Virus genome (UHGV): UHGV-0176194
Direction: 5' to 3' (one strand)
Length of the DNA: 13,937 nt
From: a virus
The notes under the pieces were generated by a model that was not told the DNA's origin, searched no databases, and was given only the letters and a program-made list of their open reading frames with translations. Position 1 is the stretch's first letter. Each line of letters begins with the position of its first letter. Positions 11,711 through 13,887 of the stretch are shown here, piece by piece. A program made the position numbers and the translations under genes.

Positions 11711-13327
11711 ATGTCTGTATTAATCTCAGGTGTGCTTATTAATGGTGCCGGCGTTCCGATGGCGGAATGCAAAATTTATTTAGATGCACTGGTTAATACC
11801 AGTGAAGTGGTCACTGAATCATTCGCGGTTATTGAAACCGATGCGGCGGGACAGTATGCCTTTGAAGCGCAAAAAGGCAAATACACCGTTCACATCAAGC
11901 AAAAGAACGGCCCTAAGTGCTGCGTGGGTGATATTTCGGTTTACGACGACTCAAAGCCCGGCACACTGAACGACTTCCTGACCGCTCTCGATGAAGGCGA
12001 CCTGAAACCGGATGTTGTTAAGCGGTTCGAAGAACTGGTGGCGCAGGCGCAGCAGAGCGCGGAAGCGGCAGCGGAAAGCGAACAGGGAGCAGGGAAACAC
12101 GCAGCTGATGCAGAGCAGACAAAAAAAGACTGCAAGACACTTGCGGATAACGTACAGCAGAACGCAGAAGCCGTAGCGGCCAGCAAACAGCGCGTTGAAC
12201 AGCTGGCCTCAGAAGTTAATCTGAACGCCGGGCAGGTGCAGCAGGGTGTGCAGAGCGTTACTGATGCGGTAAAAAAGGCGCAGCAGGCAGCAAAGAATTC
12301 TGCTGACAGTGCCACGGACTCAAAAAACAGTGCTGACAACGCCGCCCTGAGCGAACAGAACGCACAAAAACACGCGCAGAAAGCTGAACAACATGAGCAG
12401 CAGACTAAACAATATGCGCAGGATGCAGCGACCGCCGCAGAATCAGCAGAGAACGCCAAAGGCGAAATTGACGAAATTCTGGATGGCGGCTATCTCAAGA
12501 TAAAAAACAACTTTCAGGAAATTGTTGATGCTGGCCCGTCAGCACTGGCTCAGGCCCAATGGAATTTACAGATTTCCGGGGTGAAAAATAAACAGGTAAT
12601 TGCCACCCCTTATACATGGCCATCCAGAACTGAGTATGAACAAAGGGTGCATCTGCCACTCGCCGGGGCTTACGGATTTGGCTACACATTTGAAGACCAA
12701 AGCCAGGGGCGAATAAATTTTAATGAGGGCCATACGGCGTCGTGGTGGTCACAGTGGGCGAAACCTGGTCGTTATTACGTCAGCGCCAGTGATAAAGAAT
12801 ACCTCGCACCTGAAGGAGACAGGTGGGGGATTGTTGATTTGCTGTGGCTTAATGGCAGCGGACATAACGATGCTTCGAAGGTTCTGAAAATACTGGCTTT
12901 TTATGACAATGACGGATACTTGCACATCGGCAAACGTATTGCTCAGAGCAACTCGACAATAAGCTGGCGTAAACTCGCATCACTGCTGGATGTCCGACAG
13001 ATGTTGTATTCGTTTAACAGTAATTATAACAATGAGTGGCGCGACCCGGCGCAGCCAGGAAGTTTAATACTGGCGGCATACCAGGGAACCGCTGACGGCG
13101 ACACAAATATTAAAGTATCCCGTGGTCAGACTTACCCCGGCTCACGACTTGCACCTGTGGCGATAGAGTGCCCGTTCACCCCGTCTGGTACGTATGCGGC
13201 AACACCGCGTTTTTACATCACTGGCTGTAAAAGTCATTGCCTGCCAGGTACGTATATATCGATGTCCGGAGCACCCACAACATACAGCGACCAGGCTTTT
13301 GTTGCGCTGTTCATGAGGATTGCATGA
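11711..13327 (+). CDS. Side tail fibre protein with lambda Stf-type N-terminal domain, Ala/Gln-rich shaft and an unassigned C-terminal domain
   Basis: 538-aa ORF with GAGG 7 nt upstream. N-terminus (GDISVYDDSKPGTLNDFLTALDEGD) matches the lambda Stf N-terminal region as recalled. Residues about 110-260 are a low-complexity A/Q/S/E/K shaft. Confidence 0.8.
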   Translation: MSVLISGVLINGAGVPMAECKIYLDALVNTSEVVTESFAVIETDAAGQYAFEAQKGKYTVHIKQKNGPKCCVGDISVYDDSKPGTLNDFLTALDEGDLKPDVVKRFEELVAQAQQSAEAAAESEQGAGKHAADAEQTKKDCKTLADNVQQNAEAVAASKQRVEQLASEVNLNAGQVQQGVQSVTDAVKKAQQAAKNSADSATDSKNSADNAALSEQNAQKHAQKAEQHEQQTKQYAQDAATAAESAENAKGEIDEILDGGYLKIKNNFQEIVDAGPSALAQAQWNLQISGVKNKQVIATPYTWPSRTEYEQRVHLPLAGAYGFGYTFEDQSQGRINFNEGHTASWWSQWAKPGRYYVSASDKEYLAPEGDRWGIVDLLWLNGSGHNDASKVLKILAFYDNDGYLHIGKRIAQSNSTISWRKLASLLDVRQMLYSFNSNYNNEWRDPAQPGSLILAAYQGTADGDTNIKVSRGQTYPGSRLAPVAIECPFTPSGTYAATPRFYITGCKSHCLPGTYISMSGAPTTYSDQAFVALFMRIA

Positions 13328-13887
13328 TGCAGATAAAAGAAATTACCAGTCCCCGCTACACCGAATCCGGTGCGATTGACTGCGACGTTCTGTTTGAGGA
13401 AATGGAAGCCCCTGTTCCCTACACTGCCACGCCGGACGATACAGCGAAAACCGGTCAGCAAATCTGGCAGGAACTGCAAAGCGGCAAATGGGGCGAGATT
13501 GCCCCGTTCACCGCATCACCTGAACTTATCGCAGCAGCAAAGGACGCCAAAAAACGGGAAATTGAGGCATGGCGCACAGAACAGGAAGCGCAGCCGTTCA
13601 CGTTCGAATGGAACGGTCGCACCTGGAACGCTGGCCCCGACTCAATGGCCCGTCTTTATCCTGCGGTAATGGCTGCAAAATCTGATACGGCACGAACCGC
13701 CCTTGCGTGGGGCGACGCTGATAATCAACAGGTGAAACTGTCGATGCCGGAACTGGAAGAACTGGCGGCAGCAATGGCGCAGGCACAGGCCGATCGCAAT
13801 GACGAGATTTATCAGCGTCAGCGGGAAATGAAGGAGGAACTGAATAACCTGGATGATTTACGTTCAATCAGAGCGATGACGATATAG
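13324..13887 (+). CDS. Putative tail fibre chaperone / assembly protein (family not recognised)
   Basis: 187-aa ORF starting at an ATG that overlaps the fibre TGA (ATGA). The position directly after a fibre gene implies a chaperone role. No Tfa-like N-terminal motif. The track ORF begins at 13237, but that start would overlap the fibre gene by 91 nt. Confidence 0.55.
   Translation: MMQIKEITSPRYTESGAIDCDVLFEEMEAPVPYTATPDDTAKTGQQIWQELQSGKWGEIAPFTASPELIAAAKDAKKREIEAWRTEQEAQPFTFEWNGRTWNAGPDSMARLYPAVMAAKSDTARTALAWGDADNQQVKLSMPELEELAAAMAQAQADRNDEIYQRQREMKEELNNLDDLRSIRAMTI

Follow-up and report, generated by a model that had tools for sequence, protein, structure and literature searches.

A probable side-type prophage tail fibre and its likely DUF4376-class chaperone in viral genome UHGV-0176194

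The viral genome UHGV-0176194, a stretch of 13,937 nucleotides (nt) referred to here as the window, ends with a tail fibre gene and a small gene that overlaps it. The fibre, fibre 2, has 538 amino acid residues according to the list of open reading frames (ORFs) and its translation (11711..13327, plus strand), and the small protein has 187 (13324..13887, plus strand). We consider it likely that fibre 2 is a side-type fibre carrying a host-specificity tip, and that the coupled 187-residue protein acts on it as a dedicated intermolecular chaperone, one of the DUF4376 class. As such, the pair is a fairly ordinary example of a known cassette, a fibre with its DUF4376 chaperone. The evidence includes the families to which the two proteins belong, the arrangement of their genes, the predicted folds, and the pattern of conservation across related loci.

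The small gene is tightly joined to the fibre gene. Its ATG at 13324 overlaps the TGA of fibre 2 in the sequence ATGA (13324-13327), and a ribosome-binding site, GAGGA, can be read inside the end of the fibre gene, 4 nt before the ATG (13315..13319, plus strand). The start/stop overlap suggests that translation of the chaperone is coupled to that of fibre 2. Residues 1-186 of the 187-residue protein align with positions 3-188 of the 194 in PHROG 1141 (E 4e-88). The DUF4376 domain (Pfam PF14301) is found at residues 71-176 (13534..13851, plus strand), with a score of 63 bits against a gathering cut-off of 25 and a match to profile positions 1-97 of 106. A homology search with the protein gave 1827 clusters at E ≤ 1e-3. 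The best 120 of these are 186-194 residues long and 84-97% identical, nearly all from Escherichia coli; the top one, at 97%, is from Citrobacter rodentium. The homologues listed all have a precomputed DUF4376 domain.

The AlphaFold2 model of the 187-residue protein has a predicted local distance difference test (pLDDT) score of 93.2 and shows two parts. The N-domain, residues 1-65 (13324..13518, plus strand; pLDDT > 90), is modelled with strands at 4-12, 18-24 and 31-35 and a helix at 42-53; it is the proposed fibre-recognition module. The DUF4376 part, the proposed oligomerizing body, is modelled as a helix (66-89), a hairpin (93-102), a second helix (105-120), a second hairpin (126-140) and a long helix (141-174).

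An earlier note on this DNA, made from the sequence alone, had remarked that the 187-residue protein lacks the Tfa motif that is clear in the first chaperone of the window, and this observation holds. That is, PF02413 (Caudo_TAP) has no match in the protein at E ≤ 1, BLASTP gives no match between it and the first chaperone, and hhalign assigns a probability of 0.2% to a relationship between the two chaperone families. By sequence, the protein is not a member of the Tfa/Caudo_TAP family. One paper states that TfaMu contains DUF4376; we set this statement aside, as the window's Tfa-type chaperone has a match to Caudo_TAP but none to DUF4376, and hhalign shows no relationship between the families. 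No sequence or fold match to an intramolecular chaperone domain of the endosialidase or T5 pb1 type was found. As a separate observation, PHROG 1807 (241 positions) matches the first chaperone over positions 3-170 and the second over positions 122-233. We take this as a sign of hybrid chaperones in nature that join a front of the Tfa type to a DUF4376 back, and not as a sign of homology between the two chaperones.

The other partner, the fibre tip, has no named family. The earlier note had described the C-terminal 280 or so residues of fibre 2, from position 12480 (residue 257) onward, as free of HxH repeats, collar motifs and other signatures, and our searches agree. Pfam has no family for residues 255-538, and no HxH triplet is present in residues 257-538 when the translation is read. 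Phage_fiber (HxH, PF03335), Phage_fiber_2 (PF03406) and Collar (PF07484) are all absent from fibre 2, though all three are present in fibre 1, the other fibre of the window. An exhaustive HMMER search with residues 255-538, run on cluster representatives at 50% identity, defined a tip family of 72 representatives at E ≤ 1e-3, of which 55 reach E ≤ 1e-10. The match covers the tip in 64 of the 72, in proteins that range from 119 to 1034 residues, and it ends at the last or penultimate residue in nearly all of the complete proteins. None of 43 members has a Pfam match at E ≤ 0.1.

The conserved core of this family, to which fibre 2 of the window belongs, is about 225 residues long and lies at the extreme C-terminus, at residues ~315-538. 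This distal tip domain (residues 315-538; 12653..13324, plus strand) consists of two β-rich subdomains and is the proposed receptor-binding domain. Its motifs are GFGxxF, PGRY, GGLILAAY, GSRL, LPGTY..LSG and the terminal LFxRIA, and seven columns of the family alignment, A1, are invariant (G, Y, W, G, G, F and R). The F and the R of the C-terminal tail, LFMRIA in fibre 2 (13307..13324, plus strand), are invariant across the family in the same alignment. No solved structure was found to be related to the tip by sequence, in single-sequence or in profile searches. The tip family occurs widely, has no name in Pfam and lacks a solved structure.

An AlphaFold2 model built from the tip alignment has a mean pLDDT of 81, mostly 85-97 over the core, and places the subdomains at residues ~334-432 and ~452-538. 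Structure prediction, which the earlier note had proposed as a check, thus gave a confident fold for each protein alone. A Foldseek search with the tip model returned nothing at E ≤ 1e-3, the best match having an E of 0.012 and a template-modelling (TM) score of 0.25. Compared with the solved knobs of the phi812 receptor-binding protein (RBP), phage K gp144, the R2 pyocin fibre and Mu S, the model shows identities of 13% or less and large root-mean-square deviations. The tip model looks, generally and weakly, like phage fibre knobs, without a close solved relative. A phmmer match of residues 362-429 to a designed Kelch-like propeller, 7pvp, was rejected. Its whole-sequence E of 1.6e-4 is inflated by repeats, the single stretches having E of ~20, and the tip model has no propeller; it is a chance match.

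The earlier note had called this the likeliest place in the window for an uncharacterized receptor-binding fold and folding partner. The tip, with no Pfam family and no solved relative, fits that description; the pair is not unassigned, in view of PHROG 2636, PHROG 1141 and DUF4376. The note had also named full-length hits to characterized families as a reason to abandon its view. Full-length hits were indeed obtained for both proteins, but only the chaperone family has characterized members, and these are distant.

The relationship between the two proteins was followed across 80 viral loci of IMG/VR, which were found via the chaperone. Nearly all of them have a tip-family domain that ends at the chaperone start or within ~30 nt of it; a few show no tip match or a fragmented fibre ORF. 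Identity to the window ranges over these loci from 72 to 97% for the chaperone and from 26 to 94% for the tip (r = 0.29). For example, phiP27, Rac-SA53 and an enterotoxigenic E. coli (ETEC) prophage have chaperones 88-93% identical to that of the window beside tips that are 27-30% identical. That the small protein is conserved and the neighbouring tip hypervariable speaks for the tip as receptor binder and for the small protein as its helper.

The variation within the chaperone is not evenly spread. Its most variable stretch is the first ~30 residues, and the Spearman correlation (rho) with tip identity is 0.50-0.52 for the N-domain and 0.15-0.26 for the DUF4376 part. Among 60 gene pairs, variants of the N-domain pair one-to-one with variants of the fibre C-terminal tail, as follows. 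Chaperones of the IRAVKG type follow fibres ending in RIE or RID (20 of 20), and those of the TVEIKK type follow fibres ending in IRTS (8 of 8).

Adjacency of the two genes could yield the same pattern, and unlinked cases were therefore sought. In the virulent phage Av-05, a chaperone 39% identical to that of the window follows a fibre whose tip is of the same family (HMM E 5e-71). In P-EibA, GER2 and PhiR5_2, chaperones with N-domain and DUF4376 are 37-39% identical, and the upstream fibres, which end in LFQRIV or LFQRAY, have at most ~90 final residues in common with fibre 2. In phage 1720a-02 the DUF4376 body is the same but is joined to another N-domain, and the fibre before it has an unrelated end. 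Conversely, the N-domain is found without DUF4376 in Aeromonas phage 13AhydR10PP (139 residues), directly after a fibre ending PGTW...LWIRTS, and in Pseudomonas phage Itty13 (126 residues), directly after a fibre ending SGTW...VWLRIS. When a profile of tip subdomain 2 was run on 430 ORFs, the fibres upstream of N-domain chaperones took the top six places, three with E < 1e-5 and the other three with E of 0.03-0.4; the Itty13 fibre was not detected in this profile search. These co-occurrences support a modular chaperone, in which the N-domain recognizes the terminal subdomain of the fibre and DUF4376 serves as a generic oligomerizing body.

We infer that the 187-residue protein acts on the fibre in a 3:3 complex, as follows. 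Fibre 2 would be the second, side-type fibre of the particle, in which the PF08400 anchor leads into a shaft that is a coiled coil, then the neck, and finally the tip, whose two subdomains would carry host specificity and meet the receptor. On each newly made fibre chain, the N-domain would dock on the final subdomain together with its LFxRIA tail, probably through strands that join a shared sheet. The helix and hairpin bodies of three chaperones, formed by DUF4376, would then associate. Three fibre C-termini would thereby be brought into register, and folding of the trimer would run from the tip towards the shaft. Finally, the chaperone would be released, or retained as a removable cap.

Several points weigh against this proposal. 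The label of PHROG 1141 is 'tail fiber protein', not chaperone. The tip model is a monomer, whereas fibres are trimers. The correlation between N-domain and tip is confounded by adjacency, and a recombination breakpoint inside the chaperone gene would give the same pattern. The characterized DUF4376 chaperones are distant and absent among the homologues retrieved here. The PHROG label, which several GenBank records repeat, would suit a different role, in which the 187-residue protein is a resident distal component that binds the receptor itself, as the gp38 adhesins of T2/T6-type phages do, and the fibre end is only a docking platform. The proposal that DUF4376 chaperones persist as transient caps (PMC10579305) also agrees with such a role. 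We think it unlikely: no part of a fibre varies more than its adhesin, and here it is the tip that varies and the small protein that is conserved; the DUF4376 proteins tested to date act as chaperones (PMC7289586, PMC7882524); and the 187-residue model is largely helical, with no predicted loop-rich surface domain.

The adjacency argument can be taken further, so that the chaperone gene is mainly a downstream homology arm which, with the conserved fibre N-terminus, allows exchange of the tip cassette, the link between variants being mere linkage. When the DNA is compared with phiP27 and numerous E. coli prophages, the matches do include the chaperone gene and the 5′ portion of the fibre gene and skip the tip, the junction falling at about nt 1598 of the query, fibre residue 533, and the correlation is strongest in the part of the chaperone that adjoins the fibre gene. 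Such a role is nevertheless compatible with chaperone function, and both can hold; moreover, the N-domain also lies beside like-ended fibres in the unrelated Aeromonas and Pseudomonas phages, which have no DNA homology. As the main explanation we find it improbable. Less credence still is due to the idea that fibre 2 and its partner, added on to the tail operon, are decaying relics which the phage has ceased to express or use. A consensus scan finds a strong terminator-like hairpin, AGCCGCC-GCA-GGCGGCT followed by TTTTAT (seven pairs, six of them G-C; 11674..11690, plus strand), in the 44 nt that separate the first chaperone gene from fibre 2, and no promoter-like site between the hairpin and the fibre 2 start; the cassette lies at the far end of the tail module, and its phiP27 counterpart adjoins attR. 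Yet both ORFs are intact and of full length relative to their families, the overlap and ribosome-binding site are kept, and the arrangement recurs in ~80 viral loci and in the virulent phage Av-05, which cannot long keep dead genes. The hairpin would mark fibre 2 and the chaperone as a separate add-on cassette, which may be a later addition that is expressed through read-through.

Residues 1-537 of fibre 2 match positions 1-567 of the 568 in PHROG 2636, 'tail fiber protein' (E 1e-200), and a homologue of the same length, 538 residues, in E. coli UMNF18 is 88% identical. The anchor, residues 1-134 (11711..12112, plus strand), matches the whole 134-position profile of PF08400, the prophage tail fibre N-terminal family (E 1e-47), which is the sole Pfam match in fibre 2. 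This anchor is typical of the side fibres of lambdoid prophages; here it is found on a contractile-tailed prophage. Residues 1-93 match a 94-residue tail fibre chain in PDB entry 9e7m (E 8e-17), and residues 1-186 give a weak match to a 'collar spike protein', 7kjk (E 0.0014). The shaft, residues ~100-255 (12008..12475, plus strand), is rich in Ala, Gln, Glu and Lys in the translation and, judging from this composition, is presumably a trimeric coiled coil. NCBIfam matches of the shaft to SMC, Rad50 and TolA are weak and reflect coiled-coil composition only. The neck, residues 255-314 (12473..12652, plus strand), is modelled as short helices and one strand, with a pLDDT of 35-67 in the AlphaFold monomer, and is conserved in only part of the tip family.

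The window as a whole is the tail module of a contractile-tailed prophage, with sheath, tube, tape measure, baseplate J/gp47-like and YmfQ-like genes followed by two pairs of fibre and helper. The first pair, fibre 1 (10162-11091; Pfam matches to Phage_fiber_2, Collar and the HxH repeat of Phage_fiber) and the first chaperone (11091-11666; Caudo_TAP PF02413, E 4e-33), is a classical fibre with its helper. Phage phiP27 has the same four-gene layout in L54 to L57. No close DNA relative of the remaining tail module was found among deposited phages. The nearest relatives are the E. coli UMNF18 prophage, at 89% DNA identity, and Citrobacter rodentium, whose protein supplies the best chaperone match. 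The G+C content falls from ~0.57 to 0.45-0.50 over 10001-12000, which covers fibre 1 with its Tfa and extends into the first part of fibre 2, and the AT skew peaks at 0.48 at 12001-12500, in the shaft region. The lower G+C fits host-range genes acquired elsewhere, and the skew peak fits an A-rich coiled-coil region. Antisense to the shaft is a minus-strand ORF of 172 residues (11941-12459), rich in Cys, Ala and Ser, which almost certainly arises as an artefact of composition, the coding strand being repetitive. Further upstream, between the sheath and tape measure genes, two adjoining ORFs of 124 (1719-2093) and 127 residues (2090-2473) occupy the position of tube and tail-assembly-chaperone genes.

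The window stops 50 nt past the chaperone stop codon. In related elements, various genes follow at this place. The UMNF18 locus (L002 5270-6894) has a third pair after the DUF4376 gene, a 358-residue hypothetical protein with a 181-residue Tfa-type assembly protein, and then a second tail sheath gene. In P-EibA (L088 2661-3236), P-EibC, P-EibD and P-EibE, prophages in ECOR-9, the chaperone homologues (ORF-191, 37-39% identical) lie directly upstream of the eib genes, which encode immunoglobulin-binding proteins; the GER2 homologue is found upstream of a gene annotated 'adhesin'. Cargo genes may therefore insert repeatedly where the fibre cassette ends.

Tail-fibre tips determine which bacteria can be infected, and many tips cannot be produced without a chaperone. 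The pair described here is very common in E. coli prophages, Shiga-toxin phages included, and is present in at least one virulent phage. For neither of the two proteins has a structure been solved or a function tested in enterobacterial phages. Still, the window adds no new principle, as both proteins are placed in already recognized families. If one conserved chaperone does serve many divergent tips, retargeting of engineered phages or tailocins would be simpler, with only the tip to be swapped. A bolder reading, which we offer tentatively and regard as doubtful, is that the tip is of a fold class absent from solved structures and that its partner is a near-universal chaperone which reads a small conserved terminal subdomain on tips only ~26-30% identical. 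Were that so, the cassette would be a natural plug-in system for swapping host specificity.

Among known systems, the nearest by sequence are phiP27 L56/L57, Rac-SA53 tail3/tail4 and Escherichia phage Av-05 gp76/gp77, which have homologues of both proteins in the same order. Their chaperones are 88%, 88% and 39% identical to that of the window, respectively, and their tips, of the same family, ~28-37%. The proteins are annotated as hypothetical or tail fibre proteins, the fibres being 416 to 1061 residues long, and we found nothing on function in the literature on phiP27 fibres and PhiR phages.

The Tfa/Caudo_TAP proteins (lambda Tfa, Mu U/TfaMu and P2 G) are likewise small, encoded after the fibre, and made of two modules, one fibre-specific and one generic. 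Their partner fibres differ from fibre 2 in having HxH repeats and collar domains. The end of fibre 1, the Tfa partner, is NYIVRLA and that of fibre 2 is LFMRIA; both have the pattern hydrophobic-hydrophobic-x-Arg-hydrophobic-Ala, which may be a trait of chaperone-dependent fibre ends, or a coincidence. The intramolecular chaperone domains of T5 pb1 and the K1F endosialidase are C-terminal helpers that trimerize at the fibre tip, and Gonzalez-Serrano et al. proposed them as a structural analogue of the DUF4376 chaperones (PMC10579305). Prefoldin subunits are also among the closest known systems.

The functional precedents are the published DUF4376 chaperones. In a Campylobacter CJIE1-like prophage, the DUF4376 gene follows the fibre gene, as here, and co-expression of its product is required for a functional receptor-binding protein (PMC7882524). 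That H-fibre has a P2 H-type (DUF3751) N-terminus, and its host and tip are unrelated to those of the window. In Alteromonas phages V22 and A5, experiments have established the DUF4376 protein as a tail-fibre chaperone (PMC7289586, PMC10579305), and in V22 the fibre cannot be active without this protein, whose gene comes right after its own (PMC7289586). For both phages the chaperone has been modelled as a trimer capping the tip of the fibre within a heterohexamer, with an α-helical body bearing a β hairpin plus three strands, which pair with the head of the fibre (PMC10579305). Neither protein was retrieved as a sequence relative of the 187-residue protein, so the relationship rests on the shared Pfam domain. 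The V22 and A5 fibres (369-462 residues) also have N-termini and knob domains other than those of fibre 2. The likenesses are in gene order and architecture. In V22 gp26/gp27 and A5 gp8/gp9, the chaperone gene adjoins the 3′ end of the fibre gene, as it does in the window through the ATGA overlap, and by published description the chaperones have a C-terminal DUF4376 domain, with a predicted α-helical body, a β hairpin and three N-terminal strands, elements that the 187-residue model also shows. Their role is the folding of the distal knob of the fibre, the same role that we propose for the 187-residue protein at the tip of fibre 2.

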